From: a virus
Lineage: Duplodnaviria > Heunggongvirae > Uroviricota > Caudoviricetes
Length of the DNA: 36,308 nucleotides
Strand: one strand, 5' to 3'
IMG/VR virus record: IMGVR_UViG_2563366905_000008
Within the stretch, counting starts at the first letter, position 1. Every line of letters starts with the position of its first letter. Under the pieces are notes generated by a model that saw nothing but the letters and a program-made list of their open reading frames with translations, had not been told where the DNA came from and ran no database searches. A program made the position numbers and the translations under genes. Positions 1,272-9,728 of the stretch are shown one piece after another.

Positions 1272-1895
1272 TTACCGACAAACTCGTCGGATATCAACTC
1301 TGGCAATCTGTTCTGCAGGTATATAGGTTGCCAGAGTTCCCCATCCGTCATCTGCCACACCACTATCGCATTCTGTCCAGATATTGCTCCCGACTGTAGT
1401 CCGGTGCGTGACGTATAAGATTATATCTCCCTTATTACCTAACGTGACAGGACCGTTAGGCCGTCCTGCAAATCGCCCGGGTGCTCGTGAAAGTAAAACA
1501 GAGCCATCCTTAAGATATACATAGATTTCAGAAAAAGTGAAATCCATCTGATTGAACAATGACTGCCATGCTGAGCTGGTGTCATCAGACCACGAAATAT
1601 CATGATTCCACAGGAATCTGTACATCCATTTGCGACCGTATCTGCGCCACAATGCACCGTAAATAAAAGCGCAAAGAAGCGCTGGTGGTGTCGCAAGCCA
1701 CGAATTCAGACCTGCCCACATAACAGCCTGGTAAACCATCATTGACAGCAGGCCAAAAATCAGCGTCGTAAATGTCACCTCGATGGGCTTGTGATGGTCT
1801 TTCAGGCCCACGTTCGCAATAAAATAGCCGATGTATCCACTGGTCAGTGTCACCAGTGTTGCCCACGGCAGATTCAGCAGGGATGCATCAAACAT
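1272..1895 (-). CDS. Membrane protein, three N-terminal TM helices plus ~110-aa soluble C-terminal domain; possible prophage-edge cargo or host gene
   Basis: Track ORF 1272..1925; I place the start at the ATG at 1895 (MFDASLLNLPW...) because GGAGG sits 4-5 nt upstream. Hydrophobic segments at roughly residues 8-30, 44-64 and 75-95 of that product. Confidence 0.55.
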   Translation of the reverse strand: MFDASLLNLPWATLVTLTSGYIGYFIANVGLKDHHKPIEVTFTTLIFGLLSMMVYQAVMWAGLNSWLATPPALLCAFIYGALWRRYGRKWMYRFLWNHDISWSDDTSSAWQSLFNQMDFTFSEIYVYLKDGSVLLSRAPGRFAGRPNGPVTLGNKGDIILYVTHRTTVGSNIWTECDSGVADDGWGTLATYIPAEQIARVDIRRVCR

Positions 1896-2251: not shown

Positions 2252-2638
2252 TTAATCCCGGTCGTCATCCGGTTCGTCATCGTCTTCAAATAACTGCCCC
2301 TGTAACCGGCTGATTTCTTCTTTTCTTACACGCTTCACCACGCTGTAGACCCACTGAAGCGAAACACCAAATTTGCGGGCCAGTTCGTGGTGGTTGCGTC
2401 CGTTAAACTCCCTGAAGATTTCCCGGTCGCGCTGACTGACCTTCCATACCATGCCCATCGGAAAATAAACGTTTTGCCCGCCCCAGACCTGCATCATGCG
2501 GTTCGCGACGGCCTGACCAATCTGGTCGGCAACTTCGGGCTCAATATCAATAATCTCGCGAACGGTCTCAGAGGTATGCTGTGCCAGTTCCACCAGGAGT
2601 TCCGGCCCTTTACTTCGAAACTGATTCAGGTCGCTCAT
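2252..2638 (-). CDS. mor: Mor/C-family transcriptional activator (Mu middle operon regulator-like)
   Basis: 128 aa; C-terminal HTH region REIFREFNGRNHHELARKFGVSLQWVYSVVKR and acidic tail typical of Mor/C proteins; sits after the GemA-like gene as in Mu. Confidence 0.75.
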   Translation of the reverse strand: MSDLNQFRSKGPELLVELAQHTSETVREIIDIEPEVADQIGQAVANRMMQVWGGQNVYFPMGMVWKVSQRDREIFREFNGRNHHELARKFGVSLQWVYSVVKRVRKEEISRLQGQLFEDDDEPDDDRD

Positions 2639-3059
2639 GTTTGACTCCCGCAGCTCTGTGCTGCCACTTCTTCAGTTTCTCAATAACACTGCTTGCCTGT
2701 TCAGTACTGAGCCAGCGCAGGGCGCTGATGCCCGTTTCCCGCTTGATCCACCTCGCTAATGCATTTTCTGAACGGTCACGAACAATGCCGGCAGCAGCCA
2801 TTTCAAGCCATAGCGCACGAATTTTCCTGGACTGCGGATGGTTATCCAGCGGTAAACCGGAGCTGGCTTTTCTGGCTGGTTTAACGCGAAAGCCTTTCTT
2901 TTTCATGGATTCCAGCACGCAGTTTAGTTGTGTGGTATCCATTCCTTTGGTTGAGGCTTTACCGGTCAGCCCCTGTAACATCTGGCGGTAGGTGTCTTCA
3001 TCCATACCCAGTTCATTACGGGCAATATGGATAAGCTGTATCAGGCGTTTTTTCTGCAT
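2610..3059 (-). CDS. gemA: GemA-like protein (Mu gp16 / DUF1018-like)
   Basis: 149 aa; N-terminus MQKKRLIQLIHIARNELGMDEDTYRQML matches the GemA-family pattern as I recall it; positioned immediately upstream of mor. Confidence 0.65.
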   Translation of the reverse strand: MQKKRLIQLIHIARNELGMDEDTYRQMLQGLTGKASTKGMDTTQLNCVLESMKKKGFRVKPARKASSGLPLDNHPQSRKIRALWLEMAAAGIVRDRSENALARWIKRETGISALRWLSTEQASSVIEKLKKWQHRAAGVKHERPESVSK

Positions 3060-3060
3060 A

Positions 3061-3267
3061 TCATCTCCTTTTTTTCAGTCTGTCGGCAACAATGTCGGTT
3101 GCAGCTGGCAGGGTGACTGGCCAGAACAACATGACGGCGGTCATGTACAGGATGTAATGCGCGGTGTCGTAGTGCCTGCCATAGCCCAGGGAACGATGAA
3201 GTCTTGCGCTGCATGATCCTGCGTACATATACCAGAAAAGAAAACAGACAATGGTTTCAGTAGTCAT
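3061..3267 (-). CDS. Small membrane protein (68 aa), hypothetical
   Basis: Internal ATG at 3267 of track ORF 3061..3423, preceded by GGGGAGG about 8 nt upstream. Product MTTETIVCFLFWYMYAG... has two hydrophobic helices. Confidence 0.45.
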   Translation of the reverse strand: MTTETIVCFLFWYMYAGSCSARLHRSLGYGRHYDTAHYILYMTAVMLFWPVTLPAATDIVADRLKKRR

Positions 3268-3487
3268 TCTGAATACCTCCCCATTCGATATGAATATTAC
3301 GGGCAGCAATGACAGGGTCGTTATTCCACCATGCACCTGACATGTATTTTTCAACCTGTTCGCGTCCGGCAATAACACCAATTGTGATCCCCGGCCTGAC
3401 GTTCTTAAAAAAGGCGCGGGCAAAAAGGTATCTGGCAGATATTCGGCAGGCTTTTAATTTCCGGCTTTTACCTGATAGCGTAATCAT
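3257..3487 (-). CDS. Hypothetical early protein (76 aa)
   Basis: ORF tightly packed between neighbouring early genes on the same strand. Confidence 0.4.
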   Translation of the reverse strand: MITLSGKSRKLKACRISARYLFARAFFKNVRPGITIGVIAGREQVEKYMSGAWWNNDPVIAARNIHIEWGGIQNDY

Positions 3488-4167
3488 CTGGCCTCCAGTT
3501 TCTGTTGTGCCTGCCCACTGACCGGGCGGTGCAGTCTGACGTTCTGCCCTTCACGAAACCCCGCATAGCGCGAGGCGTCGCCATTGCGGCTTCTTCCCGG
3601 TTTACGCGCTCTGGTGGTTTGCGTTTGCGGGTATTTATGTTCCAGCCACTGCTGCATCAGTTCACGTTCGTCATCGGTCAGGGCGAAGGACTGTATTTCA
3701 CTGATAACGGCCAGCACCCAGCCTTCAGCAAACTGGTCACCACGGCTGGTACGGGTGGCAGTTTTTATTCTTTTGTTCTGTGTGCTGATATACTGCTGAC
3801 GCGCCTTTTTCAGCTGACGGGCCAGCACTTCCCAGGTGTATGCAGCCAGTGCCGCACGTTCCCGGTTGCCGTAGAACCCCACACCCGGATATGTGCCGGG
3901 GTGAATGATGGAGTTAACACCAAATGCCTCGCGGATGATGTTCATCAGGCCCAGCATGTAGCGCGGTGGACGGAGACTGCCTGTCGGCCAGTAATGACTG
4001 ATGGTTTCATCAATATCACTCATGGCAATGTCGGAATGTGTGATGCCGTGAACATCCATCAGTTTACGGGCACGGCGCAGTGCCAGAGCGGCCTCGTGTG
4101 GGTTGCCGGATGCGGCCAGCGCCAGCAACTTTTTCAATTTCTCAATGTGTTTATTCTGGTCTGTCAT
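3484..4167 (-). CDS. Hypothetical early protein, possibly DUF2786-like
   Basis: 227 aa; N-terminal KLKKLLALAASGNPHEAALALRRARKLM motif; stop overlaps next gene start (ATGA-type coupling). Confidence 0.6.
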   Translation of the reverse strand: MTDQNKHIEKLKKLLALAASGNPHEAALALRRARKLMDVHGITHSDIAMSDIDETISHYWPTGSLRPPRYMLGLMNIIREAFGVNSIIHPGTYPGVGFYGNRERAALAAYTWEVLARQLKKARQQYISTQNKRIKTATRTSRGDQFAEGWVLAVISEIQSFALTDDERELMQQWLEHKYPQTQTTRARKPGRSRNGDASRYAGFREGQNVRLHRPVSGQAQQKLEAR

Positions 4168-4469
4168 TGTTCAGTATCTCCGGTGTACATGACGCCCAGC
4201 CGTGCGGCAAGGCGTTCCAGTTTTTTCTGTTTGTGGAAGTCAATCAGCCGGCCCATCCCCTGAAGGCGCAACTGCTCTGTCATGATTTCCAGGTCTGCCA
4301 GCTCTGCCGCGAGGTCACTTTCGCTGCCCTGTCCGTTCAGGTTGCGGGCGGCACTGGCCGCCAGTTCAGCGGCCTCTTCTGTCAGTTTCAGGGCCTGTGC
4401 GTCCGGCCCGAAACGCTGCAGGGCCAGACGATAGAGGGCAGTGCGTGTGAGTATGGTGTTCCGTGTCAT
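4164..4469 (-). CDS. MazG-like nucleotide pyrophosphohydrolase domain protein (101 aa)
   Basis: Two acidic helix motifs, LTEEAAELAAS and SDLAAELADLEIMTEQL, resembling the EExxE/ExxD metal-binding motifs of all-alpha NTP pyrophosphohydrolases. Confidence 0.5.
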   Translation of the reverse strand: MTRNTILTRTALYRLALQRFGPDAQALKLTEEAAELAASAARNLNGQGSESDLAAELADLEIMTEQLRLQGMGRLIDFHKQKKLERLAARLGVMYTGDTEQ

Positions 4470-4478
4470 ACCGCGCCC

Positions 4479-4751
4479 TCAGTGCTTCCGGTCAACAATG
4501 ATGTGCAGATCGCCTTCTGCAGTGATTTCCATCCGGTACGGCACCTCGTGCTCTGCCGCGTGGGTGAGTGTGTTCACCAGTATCTGCAGGGCGGCCTCCT
4601 TTCCGTTAGTCGCCACAATGGCCTGCGTGGCCATGCTGATTAACGCCGTCAGGGCGCACATGATATCGGTGAGGTCACGGCATTCACACTCGTTGAGGTA
4701 CCGTTCAACAAGGGCGCGGGCGCGCTGATGTGCTTCCTGTGGGGTAATCAT
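4479..4751 (-). CDS. Hypothetical early protein (90 aa)
   Basis: ORF in the early operon with 4-nt overlap to the upstream gene. Confidence 0.5.
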   Translation of the reverse strand: MITPQEAHQRARALVERYLNECECRDLTDIMCALTALISMATQAIVATNGKEAALQILVNTLTHAAEHEVPYRMEITAEGDLHIIVDRKH

Positions 4752-4942
4752 TGCGCGTCCTCCCTGTCCGGGCGTGAGAACTCCATAACGGGCACATCTG
4801 CCGAAAAATGCTGGCTGCAGTACGGGCAGACCAGGGTGACGCGTACCGCAGGGATGTGGTATTTACCGGACATCACGGCGATGGCGCTGTGAAAACGCAG
4901 GGTTGTAATATCTCTTTCGCACTGAATACATTTAAATATCAT
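4748..4942 (-). CDS. Zinc-ribbon protein (64 aa), hypothetical
   Basis: CxxC ... CxxC arrangement (CIQC ... CPYC); AGGAG RBS upstream of ATG at 4942. Confidence 0.5.
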   Translation of the reverse strand: MIFKCIQCERDITTLRFHSAIAVMSGKYHIPAVRVTLVCPYCSQHFSADVPVMEFSRPDREDAQ

Positions 4943-5036
4943 GATGAATTCTCCTGTTTCCGGCGTGCAGAAGCCCGCGGCGCTGACGCCGGAATAAAAA
5001 AGAAAATGTTTTTATTAAATAATTAACGTGGTGTGT

Positions 5037-5567
5037 TTACTGCACATCCTGCTCAAAAGGAATTATTGAAAAATCCTCAATATCGCTTTTTATGGTAATA
5101 CCGGGAATATTTTTCACGGCCTCTTTTTCATTCAGGATGGCGTCTTTATTTATTTCCTCTTTTACACGAATAAAGCGCTCAAGCCCCAGACGTCTCAGTA
5201 GTTCAATAACATTATCCGCTCCGCGAATGCTGACTGACGGCGGACGGTTTCGCCACTGCACCTCGCCGGTGGTGAGGTTAGCAAACTTCACCTTCCCGTT
5301 GCCGGTCAGTTCATCACGGTGTGCCTCACACCATGTCTGAATACCGGACTGCAGTTCGGCCATGCGTTTTTTCAGGCTCTCGGTGAGCGGGGCATAACGT
5401 GCGGTGATATCGCCAATGGCGTCATTCATTTCTGTTTCAGCCCTGACCAGTTCACGTTGTGCGTCACCGAGCAGTCTGATGCCCTCAATGACCTCTTCGC
5501 GTGTCCCTGGTACCCAGAGTGCCGCTGCGGACTTGATACGTTTTGCCCCTTTTGTACTTTTTGCCAT
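5037..5567 (-). CDS. gam: Gam-like host-nuclease inhibitor / DNA end-binding protein
   Basis: 176 aa; long stretches match Mu Gam as I remember it (RIKSAAA, ETEMNDAI, WCEA.RDELT, RPPSVSIRG, ERFIR, DFSIIPFEQ). Confidence 0.85.
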   Translation of the reverse strand: MAKSTKGAKRIKSAAALWVPGTREEVIEGIRLLGDAQRELVRAETEMNDAIGDITARYAPLTESLKKRMAELQSGIQTWCEAHRDELTGNGKVKFANLTTGEVQWRNRPPSVSIRGADNVIELLRRLGLERFIRVKEEINKDAILNEKEAVKNIPGITIKSDIEDFSIIPFEQDVQ

Positions 5568-5594
5568 ATTTTATGATTTCTCCGGTTATGCTGA

Positions 5595-5864
5595 TTACCA
5601 CAAAGATTCCGGCCACACGACGCGACAGCCGTGCAGTTCGAAAACGCCCTGACGGAAACGTCCCCTGTTGTCATGTCCGGTATACAGATAACAGGCCTTT
5701 CCCTGCTCAAGCATGCGCATGCAATGCGCACTCCGGGAAACGCGGATGACAGGTTTGTTACCCCTGATGGTGATGCTTTGTACATCCGTGTTCGTCGCCT
5801 TAAGCGCCATAATGGCTGACTGCACTTTGCTGATTTGCTGGTTGATACCTGTGGTGGATTTCAT
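5595..5864 (-). CDS. Hypothetical early protein (89 aa)
   Basis: ORF immediately downstream of the B gene on the same strand. Confidence 0.45.
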   Translation of the reverse strand: MKSTTGINQQISKVQSAIMALKATNTDVQSITIRGNKPVIRVSRSAHCMRMLEQGKACYLYTGHDNRGRFRQGVFELHGCRVVWPESLW

Positions 5865-5866
5865 TA

Positions 5867-7033
5867 TTAAACCCCTTTGACAACGTCAGCGTTGACCTGT
5901 GGAACCCCGATTTCAGCGGCCAGATTCATGGCGGCTATTACCAGGTTACTGACGGCCAGCGGATACAGCAGGCTGACCATATTTTTACGATGACTTCCCG
6001 GATTGCTCAGGCGGGCGCGTATGGCATCCACTGCGCTGGCGTCCATAATGTCCGTCAGTTGTTTACCGGCCCGTTGCAGTTTGAACGTCAGAAACTCTTC
6101 AAGGTTATTGTCCAGAGGCAGAAGTTCGACCACCTCACAGCGCTGAACGACTTCACGGACTTCCATATTGCGTTCAGACAGTTTTGTCGCCAGTTCCGGC
6201 TGGCCAATCAGCACGATGGACAGCAGTTTTTTGAAACCGGACTCCAGCTCAAAAAAGCGTTTGAGGTGTTTCAGTGTCGGAATAGGCAGACTGTGGGCCT
6301 CCTCAATCACCAGAACGTGGCTGAACCCCGCCTGGCTGCTGTCTTTCAGGACGCGATGCAACTGGCGAAAGCGGGCGTCCTGACTGCGTCTGATGCTTTC
6401 CAGTGGTGCGATGGTACTGATAATGGCTTCGGCAATCGCTGCTGCCTTCAGGGTTTTCCCTTTCACATCGTTGTCTTCCATAGCGATGATGTATGGCTCG
6501 ATAACAATTACCGGCGCATTCTCGCGGTTGATACGTTCAGTCAGGTCGCGGCGCAGCGTGGATTTACCCGCACCGGACTCACCGATGACGGCCATAAACC
6601 CACCATGACGGGCTGTCTGGTACAACGCCTCACGCACGTAGCGAATGTCCGGGGTGGTGAACACATCATCAGAACCCTGCATGGCTTCGTCGGCGAACGG
6701 GTCACGGAAAAGACCAAACGCTTTTTTGGTTGCCGGGAATAACACCTGTTTTTTGAGTAACATATTCTCTTCCTCACTGAGGCTCGTTTTATCTGTGGTA
6801 CCCGCTGTACGGGGCGTGGTCGCGCCCTGTACAGCATCAAAACTCTTCGCTGTATCAATCCCCTGACTTTCCAGCCAGGACGCAAGACGCCGGCGCACTT
6901 CTCCGGGGCTGGTGCGGGGCCACGCGTTATGATTCACAATCTGGGCCAGCGTGGCCTCAGAAACATCGACAGCTCTCGCCACCACCGCCTGTGGAATACG
7001 GGCCTCTTTCAGTTGCTGCTTCAGTACCAGCAT
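5867..7033 (-). CDS. Transposition ATPase (Mu B-like AAA+ protein with N-terminal HTH)
   Basis: Walker A GESGAGKST and Walker B VLVIEEAH. I place the start at the ATG at 7033 (MLVLKQQLKEA...), which has GGAGG upstream and sits just after the transposase stop. Confidence 0.85.
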   Translation of the reverse strand: MLVLKQQLKEARIPQAVVARAVDVSEATLAQIVNHNAWPRTSPGEVRRRLASWLESQGIDTAKSFDAVQGATTPRTAGTTDKTSLSEEENMLLKKQVLFPATKKAFGLFRDPFADEAMQGSDDVFTTPDIRYVREALYQTARHGGFMAVIGESGAGKSTLRRDLTERINRENAPVIVIEPYIIAMEDNDVKGKTLKAAAIAEAIISTIAPLESIRRSQDARFRQLHRVLKDSSQAGFSHVLVIEEAHSLPIPTLKHLKRFFELESGFKKLLSIVLIGQPELATKLSERNMEVREVVQRCEVVELLPLDNNLEEFLTFKLQRAGKQLTDIMDASAVDAIRARLSNPGSHRKNMVSLLYPLAVSNLVIAAMNLAAEIGVPQVNADVVKGV

Positions 7034-7043
7034 GTTTCCCTCC

Positions 7044-8813
7044 TCAGTTGCCGTTAACAATGCTGATAACACTGCTGCGGGCCGGTGTGGTCAGCGTGGC
7101 CATGACTTCATCCAGTGCGGCTTCCGGTACGCCGTCCGGGTACTGTGCCGTTAACTGGCGGTAATGTTCCGGCGTCCAGGTAAGGCCGTCGGCGCTGAAC
7201 TTATCGCGCAGGGCTTTCGCGGCCTCCACATGAGTCATGGGACGTTGTTCAGTGCGCGGCCCGCGTACGTCAGAGGCCTGACCACGCTTCGGCATATAGG
7301 CCGGAAGTGTGGTGTCGTCGATATGTTTATACGGGTCAAGCTGCCCGCCGAACGGCAGCGCCTTCGCCTTGCGTGCGGCGGCTGCATCTGCGGCGTTGTC
7401 TGTACCGGTAACCAGCGCTTCGGTTTCTTTTGCCGCCATCTGTGCCGGGGTTTCCGGCAGGGCTTTGTAACTTTCGCCAAATACCGCCGCGCCTTCAGCA
7501 AAGCCAAACTCGTTCTTTCTGACCTCTTCGACCAGGAAGAACGTCTCGTGGCCGTCCTCACCGGTCAGAACCACCTGTGCCACATCGCTGCGCCACGGGT
7601 TACGGGTAATCATCAGTTTTTCACCGACCAGTACGTCAGGTACCGTTGATACGTCAAATTCAGTGCCCCGGAACGAGACACGAAGTTTTGGCGTGACTTT
7701 GCGGAGTTCTGGTGCCGCCACAGCCAGTTCACGGCATACCTCAACGGAAGGCGCTTTTTTCAGCTGCTCAGCAGTAATCTTCAGCCAGATATCCGTGCGG
7801 GTTTTACCGTGGCGGCTGTGAACAGCCGTGGCGTTAAAGTGGCTGCGCCATTTCGCGGCCAGCGCGTTGAGTTCTTCCAGACTGTGAACCGGCCGGAACT
7901 TCAGACCCGGCTCCAGCTTGCGTTCGATAATGTCACGCGCCTTTTCCACCTGTCCGGTGGCGCGGGCGTTATGCGGCTTGTGCGCTATCAGGTCGATGCC
8001 CAGTGAGCGGCACATGTTTTTCGTCATACCCGCGGTGTTTGCCGAGCCGGGGTCGAGATAGAGTATTTTCGGCACGCCGTGCAGCACGTCTGCGCCGCCA
8101 CGCTCCTGCATGGCGTTGATAAGCACAGAACACAGGTTCTCACCGGATTCCGCGCCCGTCACATACTCAACGTAAATCCAGCCGCTGGCATGGTCGGTAA
8201 TCTCGTAACTCCACACGCGGTCACTGGCGATACGGGCAAGGTTAGCGGGCTTGTTCTTGTAGAACTTCGCGCTGTCCATCACCTGCAGCCCTTTATGTCC
8301 ATTGCTCAGGTAGTAAAGCGTGCAGAGTGAGGCGTCAATCTGCCAGACATGATTGGGATGCAGACTGGCCACTTCGGTATGCGGCGCAGGGGCATCCAGT
8401 TGTTCCGGGTGCAGGCCATAGTTACGCAGGGCACGACTGATGGCATCTTCGGACAACGGGAAAAACTCACCGGTGGTTTCATCTGTTCTGCCTGCGGTGA
8501 TAAAGCCGTTAGCCCGCAGGGTTTCCACTGCATCTGCGATGGAATAGAGACGCTTACCGTTCTTGCGGGTGGCCTCACGCAGTGTGGCAGATATCAGCGC
8601 GGCTTCGTCGCGGGTCAGGGCGCTGCGCCCGGCATCGGCGCGTTTTTTGCGTTTATCAGTCACAGAGACCTCCTTCAGCCTGCGCAGCAGAGTGGCGCGG
8701 GACATGCCAAGTTCAGCACAGGCAGCGTCATATATTGCACCGCGTTTACCATGCCCCGCGTCACGTGCCGCGCGGGCGACATAAACCAGTCGTTCAGTCA
8801 GGGCAGCATTCAT
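7044..8813 (-). CDS. Mu-type DDE transposase (A protein)
   Basis: 589 aa; N-terminal HTH (GMSRATLLRRLKE); integrase-core motifs VWQIDAS, LYLDPGSANT and QVEKA; GGAGG RBS. Confidence 0.9.
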   Translation of the reverse strand: MNAALTERLVYVARAARDAGHGKRGAIYDAACAELGMSRATLLRRLKEVSVTDKRKKRADAGRSALTRDEAALISATLREATRKNGKRLYSIADAVETLRANGFITAGRTDETTGEFFPLSEDAISRALRNYGLHPEQLDAPAPHTEVASLHPNHVWQIDASLCTLYYLSNGHKGLQVMDSAKFYKNKPANLARIASDRVWSYEITDHASGWIYVEYVTGAESGENLCSVLINAMQERGGADVLHGVPKILYLDPGSANTAGMTKNMCRSLGIDLIAHKPHNARATGQVEKARDIIERKLEPGLKFRPVHSLEELNALAAKWRSHFNATAVHSRHGKTRTDIWLKITAEQLKKAPSVEVCRELAVAAPELRKVTPKLRVSFRGTEFDVSTVPDVLVGEKLMITRNPWRSDVAQVVLTGEDGHETFFLVEEVRKNEFGFAEGAAVFGESYKALPETPAQMAAKETEALVTGTDNAADAAAARKAKALPFGGQLDPYKHIDDTTLPAYMPKRGQASDVRGPRTEQRPMTHVEAAKALRDKFSADGLTWTPEHYRQLTAQYPDGVPEAALDEVMATLTTPARSSVISIVNGN

Positions 8814-8816
8814 TGG

Positions 8817-9728
8817 TTATGCCTCCAGCCCGTTAATCTGTGGCGTCGGCTCAGTCAGCCATGAAGGCGCGACATCGCCTGTTGGCTCGTCCGGCAGGTC
8901 AAATGTGGAGCGCAGGCTACGCGCTGTGCTTTCCAGTTGACAGACCAGGCCTGCCATGAAGTCTCTGGGGGTATCAATCATGTTTTCAGCACAATATGCA
9001 CACAGCGTCTCAAAAGCGCTGGACAGTCGGACGGCGATAGCTGATTCCGCCTCAACCGCTAACGCTGTCACTTCCGCCCGCAGTTTCTTCACCTCTTCGT
9101 CAGGCTCAGGCGGCTGAATACGGGATTTCTTCTCCAGTCTGGTGGAGAGTGAGTCTATTTTTTCATTTTTGTCGGCCAGCACGCGCTGTTGTGCTGCGTT
9201 GGTTTCGCGGGCTTCGCGAAGAGACTGACGCAATTCACGTACTGACATGCGATCAACGTCGTCAAGCGTCAGTCCGGCAACTGTGCCACCGTCGGCCAGT
9301 TCGGCAAGGTCTTCATCATCCTCTAACATCAATTCGTACAGTTTTGATCTTCCCAAATGCGAAAACGTTTTCGCTTTTGATGTCAGCTCTGGAGATAAAA
9401 ACTTCAGAGCAGCTTGGGCCATTTTTTGGGCTATGCGTGGCTCAAGGTTCAACTGTTCTTTGACGATTTGTACGTATTCTCCATGAGGTTCATTTTCCTT
9501 CAGGATAACCAAACGTTTACCTGCCTCCAGCATAGCCTCCGCACTCTGGTCCATATAAAACCGAGTTTCGTGAACGATGCGATTACGTTCATAGGGCAGG
9601 CCGTCGCCGAACTGCTGCATGATCTCCATACGATGCTGTGTCATGGCATTCAGGCTGACGTTGAGATCATCAGACAGCGGTATCTCGGCGTTCAGTTCAG
9701 TGCTAACCGGTGATTTGGTGCGTCCCAT
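8817..9728 (-). CDS. Hypothetical protein (303 aa) upstream of transposase
   Basis: AAGGAG RBS; stop is tightly coupled to the transposase start; coiled-coil-rich middle region. Confidence 0.55.
   Translation of the reverse strand: MGRTKSPVSTELNAEIPLSDDLNVSLNAMTQHRMEIMQQFGDGLPYERNRIVHETRFYMDQSAEAMLEAGKRLVILKENEPHGEYVQIVKEQLNLEPRIAQKMAQAALKFLSPELTSKAKTFSHLGRSKLYELMLEDDEDLAELADGGTVAGLTLDDVDRMSVRELRQSLREARETNAAQQRVLADKNEKIDSLSTRLEKKSRIQPPEPDEEVKKLRAEVTALAVEAESAIAVRLSSAFETLCAYCAENMIDTPRDFMAGLVCQLESTARSLRSTFDLPDEPTGDVAPSWLTEPTPQINGLEA

Follow-up and report, generated by a model that had tools for sequence, protein, structure and literature searches.

The semi-essential early region of phage Mu holds the genes kil, gam, sot, arm and gemA. 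Mu Gam, a Ku-like protein, attaches to the ends of DNA and so protects linear phage DNA against exonucleases of the RecBCD type. A second described system of relevance is Atd1, a MazG-like pyrophosphatase of Pectobacterium phage PcCB7V, which depletes (p)ppGpp and thereby lessens the toxicity of TIR-STING and retron-TIR (bioRxiv 10.1101/2022.06.09.495361). Here we analyse the block of small genes at positions 3061-5864 of a 36,308-nucleotide stretch of DNA, the virus record IMGVR_UViG_2563366905_000008 (Caudoviricetes), to which we refer in its full length as the window. By its sequence, the window classes as a BcepMu-like transposable prophage of E. coli. We consider it about 70% probable that the block is the accessory ('semi-essential') tail of this prophage's early operon, and that it mixes a gene of known role with genes conserved throughout the lineage and genes that occur sporadically.

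The probable early-operon block of a BcepMu-like prophage

The block consists of eight closely spaced minus-strand genes, bounded by a gene encoding a MuB-like ATPase and by gemA-mor (2252-3059) (Table 1). A first-pass annotation of this DNA had described eight small minus-strand genes between B and GemA, and both their coordinates and their count agree with the open reading frames (ORFs), ribosome-binding sites, PHROG families and RefSeq annotation. Three junctions are ATGA overlaps (4748-4751, 4164-4167 and 3484-3487), a fourth is an overlap of 11 nt (3257-3267), and three others have gaps of 1, 2 and 9 nt. The gap between the genes encoding p89 and Gam measures 27 nt, and the only long gap, of 94 nt, separates the Gam gene from the zinc-ribbon gene. 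Such overlapping or near-adjacent stop and start codons suggest that the genes are probably co-transcribed and translationally coupled. The eight genes come after A and B, share their strand and lead directly into gemA and mor; we propose that the early promoter would drive their expression along with that of A and B, within minutes of the onset of lytic growth. Inside the block, promoter-like and terminator-like motifs are as numerous as in shuffled sequence.

The block matches Escherichia phage PhiKM (PQ738613, genus Bcepmuvirus) at 96% identity over its full length and in the same gene order; our literature searches found no functional study of this phage. Of 5426 complete E. coli genomes, 629 carry the block, with at least 80% of it covered in 619 of the copies. 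The block is already present and annotated, mostly as hypothetical genes, in PhiKM and in hundreds of RefSeq genomes. The host gene that borders the prophage differs between the window and its best E. coli match, as expected for a transposable phage. Relative to PhiKM, the window copy lacks 219 bp (junction at about 4184; PhiKM segment L001:7125-7343). The deleted segment encodes a 71-amino-acid single-pass membrane protein (phrog_3958), whose gene is kept in 533 of the 629 E. coli copies, so the window carries a minority form. The deletion also appends the last six codons of this gene to the end of the MazG-like ORF.

We compared gene order and content in 72 IMG/VR contigs, each of which has the MazG-like gene as well as B and GemA. 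Gene order is constant in all 72, and the presence and absence of individual genes gives 15 architectures: the zinc-ribbon gene, p90, the 71-amino-acid membrane gene, p76 and TM68 are each variably present. Individual block genes are also missing from close relatives, which bears on their dispensability. The slot of the DUF2786 gene is alternatively filled by a 128-amino-acid ORF, and in two distant relatives (L124:5266-5727 and L154:5263-5721) it holds, after the MazG-like gene, a 152-amino-acid protein with an N-terminal CxxC...CxxC pattern and a match to phrog_1518, 'host nuclease inhibitor' (E = 2e-20). Distant relatives also have extra cassettes between B and p89. The pattern is that of an accessory cassette region over a conserved scaffold.

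Within this pattern, we propose three groups of genes. The gene of known role encodes Gam, which would protect DNA ends. The lineage-conserved genes would be those encoding p89, the zinc ribbon, the MazG-clan enzyme, the DUF2786-DUF7168 protein and the two-helix membrane protein. The third group would comprise sporadic cassettes that come and go between close relatives, namely p90, p76 and the 71-amino-acid membrane gene that is deleted here. These three are the best candidates in the block for counter-defence or host takeover.

Gam, the zinc ribbon and the remaining small genes

The first-pass annotation did not mention Gam, yet the largest of its 'small' genes encodes a member of the Mu Gam family of nuclease inhibitors. 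The 176-amino-acid product scores 140.4 bits against PF07352 (cut-off 28.3), with residues 23-169 matching profile positions 1-148 of 149, and is classed by this match as a full-length family member. Family membership by itself leads us to expect that it binds double-stranded DNA ends and blocks exonucleases. Among the eight products, Gam is the only one with an established role.

In relatives, the slot of this gene is occupied either by Gam or by a DUF3164 protein (PF11363, E = 3e-80; phrog_846), even at an identity of about 93% in A and B. The DUF3164 alternative is present in 31 of the 72 IMG/VR relatives (for example L003:3110-3721), and the hairpin described below is still conserved downstream of it. 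The shared slot, the near-identical A and B and the conserved hairpin together suggest that DUF3164 may be a functional substitute for Gam. Literature searches found no functional study of DUF3164. The record used for this example, Klebsiella phage KP12 clone KP12_2, is labelled Vequintavirinae; the stretch of it that we examined (the last ~6 kb) is a BcepMu-like early region.

The first-pass annotation had also predicted a CxxC...CxxC zinc ribbon, and the cysteine pattern of the 64-amino-acid protein Zn64 confirms this assignment: C5-x2-C8 and C39-x2-C42 are invariant in nine homologues with identities down to 22%. None of the curated zinc-ribbon Pfam models reaches its cut-off for Zn64. Matches of the zinc-ribbon profile to Ika/Tako in the PDB contained no passing stretch and were ignored. 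In the GenBank record of PhiKM, a plus-strand ORF (L001:7969-8190) is annotated over this conserved minus-strand gene. As the four conserved cysteines lie in the minus-strand frame, we regard the minus-strand call as the right one. In relatives without p90, the Zn64 gene overlaps the start codon of the MazG-like gene, and one database entry (P0022) reads the two as a single fused protein.

The 94-nt gap just upstream of the Zn64 ribosome-binding site contains a hairpin on the mRNA strand, with an inner stem-loop and an outer stem. Its minimum free energy is -26.6 kcal/mol (z = -3.72), and none of 200 shuffled sequences folds as well. The hairpin is conserved in Klebsiella, Pantoea and Erwinia relatives, more so than the coding sequence on either side, and irrespective of which gene precedes it, Gam or DUF3164. 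Across these genera there is one compensatory change, from a C-G to a U-A pair, and PhiKM has one broken pair. Since a U-run lies before the stem and not after it, the hairpin was rejected as an intrinsic terminator on either strand. At the gathering threshold, no Rfam family matched anywhere in the window, the hairpin included. According to the predicted fold, the U-run and the Zn64 ribosome-binding site are paired in the outer stem, and we speculate that the hairpin might act in translational control.

The gene encoding p89 follows B in 26 of the 37 species loci that carry B. Its product has invariant residues P38, G63, G68, C80 and W84, and matches nothing in Pfam, the PDB or NCBIfam; a homologue search returned only 'hypothetical protein' entries, none with Pfam domains. 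Profiles of p89, Zn64, p90 and p76 gave no credible match to the PDB.

The two sporadic cassettes present in the window are commoner in E. coli-type viral contigs than in species loci. p90 was found in 3 of 80 species loci and in 43 of the 72 viral contigs, and p76 in 5 of 80 species loci, at 70-100% identity where present. Between the window and PhiKM, p90 is 88% identical in nucleotides and 82% in amino acids (dN = 0.10), whereas the other block genes are 94-100% identical in nucleotides; p90 is the fastest-evolving and most divergent gene of the block. Its 29 distinct variants represent at least two allele types, and some of them are chimeric (L091, L106).

A two-helix membrane protein had likewise been predicted, and this prediction stands as probable. 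TM68 has two uncharged, aromatic-rich segments of 17-20 residues around a conserved basic AELHR loop (15 distinct homologues), but its maximum Kyte-Doolittle value of 1.52 is borderline, just below the usual threshold of 1.6.

The DUF2786-like protein of the first-pass annotation was recovered with a second domain in addition. PF10979 (DUF2786) scores 43.0 bits (cut-off 23.9) at residues 8-44, and PF23771 (DUF7168) scores 92.8 bits (cut-off 25.5) at residues 46-189, in this N-to-C order. The protein is basic, with an isoelectric point of 10.1. A scan of one genome per species located the two-domain protein at 80 loci in Gamma-, Beta- and Alphaproteobacteria. In 64 of 82 loci with DUF2786-DUF7168, GemA is encoded no more than a few kb away and nearly always on the downstream side, so that the DUF2786-DUF7168 gene usually stands immediately before gemA. 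It was also found in 178 phage records, including Pseudomonas phages B3, JBD24 and H72 and many Ralstonia Mu-like phages. The only structural neighbours of DUF7168 are weak KH-like domains, and its core was rejected as a type I KH domain, as it has neither the beta-alpha-alpha-beta-beta-alpha topology nor the GXXG loop. Literature searches returned no functional study of DUF2786. The breadth of this distribution and the adjacency to gemA fit a general phage function better than a host-specific inhibitor. The gene looks like an early gene common to transposable phages, core-like rather than host-specific; its product most likely has a general DNA or regulatory function, probably tied to GemA.

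The MazG-like protein and the question of counter-defence

The first-pass annotation had called a MazG-like domain in the 101-amino-acid protein, and this call is supported only at the superfamily level: the PHROG match is strong and the motif is conserved, but the protein falls under the Pfam and NCBIfam cut-offs. Its weak matches (phrog_4856, phrog_1992 'MazG-like pyrophosphatase', Pfam PRA-PH and TIGR03188) all belong to one superfamily. The acidic signature comprises E31-E32-A-A-E35 and, 20 residues on, E56-L-A-D59, which constitutes the EExxE...ExxD metal-binding motif. In 15 close relatives, these acidic residues are invariant or at least 90% conserved. An HMMER scan of 1.84 billion representatives found 3405 relatives at E <= 1e-3, and of the 142 top hits that were newly retrieved, 136 have E[ED]xxE...ExxD. 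An alignment of 81 remote relatives, with identities of 30-54%, shows no variation at E31 and at least 90% conservation at E32, E35, E56 and D59. Among these 81, Pfam matches were to MazG in 8 (at E <= 1e-3), to MazG-like in 2 and to PRA-PH in 1, and remote relatives in sequenced phages are annotated as nucleoside triphosphate (NTP) pyrophosphohydrolases. A tblastn search with the window protein found only four phage records, all of Escherichia or Klebsiella phages.

Against the PDB, a broad profile weakly matched 5ie9 (E = 0.016), an NTP pyrophosphatase (NTP-PPase) with which both acidic motifs align, as well as YpjD (2gta; E = 0.08) and the integron iMazG (2q73/2q5z; E = 0.12-0.15). Designed coiled coils and a STAS protein matched by the same profile were treated as artefacts of helical composition. 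Searches with the sequence itself and with a narrow profile matched only a helical segment of IWS1 (E = 0.003-0.8), which was considered spurious, because it covers half of the protein and misses the motif. Taken together, the protein is probably a member of the all-alpha NTP-pyrophosphohydrolase superfamily with an intact catalytic motif. Its most likely activity would be the hydrolysis of a nucleoside polyphosphate, with (p)ppGpp or a (d)NTP as the substrate.

The latter substrate corresponds to an alternative in which the enzyme serves the nucleotide pool, by house-cleaning or by balancing deoxynucleoside triphosphates (dNTPs), and thereby aids replicative transposition. It would act on dNTPs or non-canonical dNTPs, as cyanophage or integron MazG does, and would be unrelated to immunity. 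The nearest solved relatives found with the broad profile are indeed house-cleaning NTP-PPases, and the gene is strictly conserved in the lineage, stands beside other conserved genes and has a ratio of non-synonymous to synonymous substitution rates (dN/dS) of 0.17. However, the structural matches are weak, nothing in our analysis points to a substrate, and Atd1, the one functionally tested small phage MazG-domain protein that we found, acted on ppGpp and not on ribonucleoside triphosphates (bioRxiv 10.1101/2022.06.09.495361). We hold the nucleotide-pool role to be possible, but less likely than not.

The first-pass annotation had placed the genes in the semi-essential region of a Mu-like phage and proposed them as anti-defence candidates. 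The first part agrees with our reading of the block as an accessory early-operon tail. For the second, the location, Gam, the variability of the cassettes and the precedent of Atd1 speak in its favour, but there was no match to defence or anti-defence proteins in the libraries searched, which did not include a set of anti-defence profiles. PADLOC defence-system models gave no match at E <= 0.01 for any of the eight products, NCBIfam gave nothing meaningful for any of them, and no product matched an entry indicative of defence or counter-defence in PADLOC, NCBIfam or solved structures. The annotation had itself named the outcome that would tell against its proposal, namely that all products are known core proteins; instead, one of the eight has a known role. 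An anti-defence function of the block is thus plausible, with Gam and Atd1 as precedents, but no more than a hypothesis.

In its strongest form, this hypothesis would make the block mainly a counter-defence island, in which the MazG-like protein destroys an alarm or immune signal ((p)ppGpp or cyclic nucleotides) and the zinc ribbon, p89, p90, p76 and the DUF2786 protein are stoichiometric inhibitors of host nucleases or sensors. We judge this to be rather unlikely. Its appeal lies in the position within a Mu-type semi-essential region, in the presence of a nuclease inhibitor (Gam), in Atd1 as an example of a MazG-like counter-defence enzyme from a phage, in the cassette-like content that varies between relatives, in the fast evolution and chimeric alleles of p90, and in the 'host nuclease inhibitor' family protein that takes the DUF2786 slot in distant relatives. 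On the other hand, sequence, NCBIfam, PADLOC and PDB profile searches found no similarity to any characterised anti-defence protein, and hosts whose defence repertoires differ widely share the genes encoding DUF2786-DUF7168, p89, the zinc ribbon and the MazG-like protein. Within E. coli the block hardly varies, as the coverage of its copies attests, and dN/dS is below 1 in every measurable gene: relative to PhiKM it is 0.03 for Gam, 0.06 for Zn64, 0.11 for DUF2786 and 0.45 for p90, in addition to the value given above for the MazG-like gene, as computed only for genes with enough differences between the window and PhiKM. The occurrence of DUF2786-DUF7168 beside gemA in phages of three proteobacterial classes also argues against a host-specific inhibitor, and the anti-defence reading is weakened for this most conserved gene.

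A narrower version confines counter-defence to three adjacent genes. The zinc ribbon, the MazG-clan enzyme and the product of the next gene (DUF2786-DUF7168 or the phrog_1518 protein) would form a conserved, translationally coupled module behind a regulatory hairpin, which would remove a nucleotide alarm and block its effector during replicative transposition, with DUF3164 as an unrecognised Gam substitute. We regard this module as unlikely.

Several points weigh against our preferred reading, that of an accessory early-operon tail with known-role, lineage-conserved and sporadic genes. Six of the eight products are without known function. Co-transcription is a prediction from the sequence, and the hairpin divides the proposed single operon into two sets of genes, possibly at a site of processing or regulation. 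The split into core and accessory genes was made by tblastn presence and absence at E <= 1e-3 to 1e-4, at which divergent homologues can be missed. For the MazG-like protein, the curated models score below their cut-offs (PRA-PH 15.5 bits against 21.3, E = 0.024; TIGR03188 15.0 against 42.7), direct and narrow-profile PDB searches with the 101-amino-acid protein did not find MazG, and the broad profile also matches designed helical bundles and coiled coils and the STAS protein mentioned above, so that helical composition inflates its weak matches. An AlphaFold2 monomer model from a 15-sequence alignment is all-helical (helices at 9-20, 22-47 and 50-91) but poor, with a predicted local distance difference test score of 62.6 and a predicted template modelling score of 0.34, and a Foldseek search with it gave only noise, with no match at E <= 0.001.

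Locus layout and comparison with known systems

The features of the locus are collected in Table 1. Within the first 10 kb of the window, every long ORF with family support is on the minus strand. With the RefSeq start, the MuB-like gene encodes 388 amino acids and carries the RefSeq label 'ExeA family protein'.

Table 1. Positions of the genes and the hairpin in the early region of the window, with the matches that support them
Feature	Position	Strand	Supporting match
DUF3102 protein	8817-9728	-	
Transposase A, 589 amino acids	7044-8813	-	
MuB-like AAA+ transposition ATPase (upstream flank)	5867-7072	-	AAA_22, E = 3.9e-20; phrog_296 'DNA transposition protein', E = 2e-93
p89, basic, 89 amino acids, slot directly after B	5595-5864	-	phrog_2041, E = 9.9e-37
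Mu Gam family protein, 176 amino acids	5037-5567	-	PF07352, E = 5.6e-41; phrog_491, E = 9.7e-74
Hairpin in the gap between the Gam and zinc-ribbon genes	4949-5004 (inner stem-loop 4958-4994)	-	minimum free energy, shuffles and conservation
Zn64, CxxC...CPxC zinc ribbon, 64 amino acids	4748-4942	-	phrog_3401, E = 1.6e-40
p90, acidic, 90 amino acids, sporadic cassette	4479-4751	-	phrog_3691, E = 4.4e-51
MazG-clan-like protein, 101 amino acids, single domain	4164-4469	-	phrog_2245 'nucleoside triphosphate pyrophosphohydrolase', E = 5e-33
DUF2786 + DUF7168 protein, 227 amino acids	3484-4167	-	PF10979, E = 4.4e-11; PF23771, E = 1.9e-26
p76, basic, 76 amino acids, sporadic cassette	3257-3487	-	phrog_3681, E = 6.5e-55
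TM68, probable two-helix membrane hairpin, 68 amino acids	3061-3267	-	phrog_6436, E = 2.2e-45
GemA (Mu gp16 family; downstream flank)	2610-3059	-	PF06252, E = 9.8e-41
Mor-family middle-operon activator, end of the early operon	2252-2638	-	PF08765, E = 9.3e-44

We judge all eight small ORFs to be real genes. Each has a ribosome-binding site of the GGAG type, all eight match PHROG families (E = 5e-33 to 2e-76), and RefSeq annotates the same eight genes, six as 'hypothetical', one as 'DUF2786 domain-containing' and one as 'host-nuclease inhibitor Gam family'. Plus-strand ORFs at 3505-4263, 4080-4643 and 4808-5026, and an alternative minus-strand ORF at 5426-5785, were rejected as genes, as none matches a PHROG family. 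That some of the ORFs of 64-90 amino acids are chance ORFs in a GC-rich prophage region, as their shortness, their lack of a Pfam family and the different ORF placed over the zinc-ribbon gene in the PhiKM record might suggest, is highly improbable, since each of these short ORFs has a Shine-Dalgarno site and a PHROG match at E <= 1e-36, their homologues at 22-70% identity retain invariant residues, synonymous changes outnumber non-synonymous ones (for example 8 against 2 in Zn64) and the antisense ORFs match no family.

Beyond mor, a 207-amino-acid gene (1272-1895, minus strand) adjoins the host junction. Its product has an N-terminal hydrophobic segment and belongs to a family without assigned function (phrog_12870). 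It was found in only five related loci, and PhiKM has a different small gene at this place. It is possibly a gene for lysogenic conversion or exclusion.

Roughly one complete E. coli genome in nine carries the prophage, and many of these come from clinical isolates, so its early genes would be expressed in many strains upon induction. The present outcome is a careful annotation and not a discovery, and its main value is a prioritised list of candidates. As a test-bed, the block offers a short list of conserved genes without assigned function, a division into lineage-conserved and sporadic genes, and a probable pyrophosphatase with a counter-defence precedent in a related phage. Should either the MazG-like enzyme or the sporadic cassettes prove to counter host immunity, known counter-defence strategies would extend to enterobacterial transposable phages; if they do not, the block would be ordinary phage housekeeping.

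Among known systems, the closest to the window are PhiKM and the RefSeq-annotated E. coli prophages, which share its gene order and high identity over the whole block; the window differs from PhiKM in the loss of the 71-amino-acid gene and in its divergent p90 allele. The early proteins of Pseudomonas phages B3, JBD24 and H72 and of Ralstonia Mu-like phages share the two-domain architecture and early-region position of the DUF2786-DUF7168 protein and are 34-38% identical to it over about 90% of its length, within a family that is uncharacterised. The solved NTP-PPases 5ie9, B. subtilis YpjD and integron iMazG have in common with the MazG-like protein a length of about 100 residues and, in the case of 5ie9, aligned EExxE and ExxD motifs, but the similarity is marginal and the window protein alone lies under every curated family threshold. 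Atd1, to which it is likened by description and not by sequence, provides a working model in which depletion of (p)ppGpp would keep alarmone-triggered toxins silent.

The comparison with phage Mu itself is mainly one of organisation. Both regions follow A and B with the same logic of position and strand, end in gemA-mor, contain a Gam-family gene and consist of many small genes, those of Mu being non-essential. GemA, Mor and Gam of the window score above their Pfam cut-offs; beyond these three, no small window protein could be placed in a Mu family with the tools used. The window also differs from Mu in belonging to the BcepMu lineage, whose early operon runs divergently from the structural genes. 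Nothing in the structure or organisation of the block is unexpected: it corresponds, within the BcepMu lineage, to the semi-essential early region of Mu.

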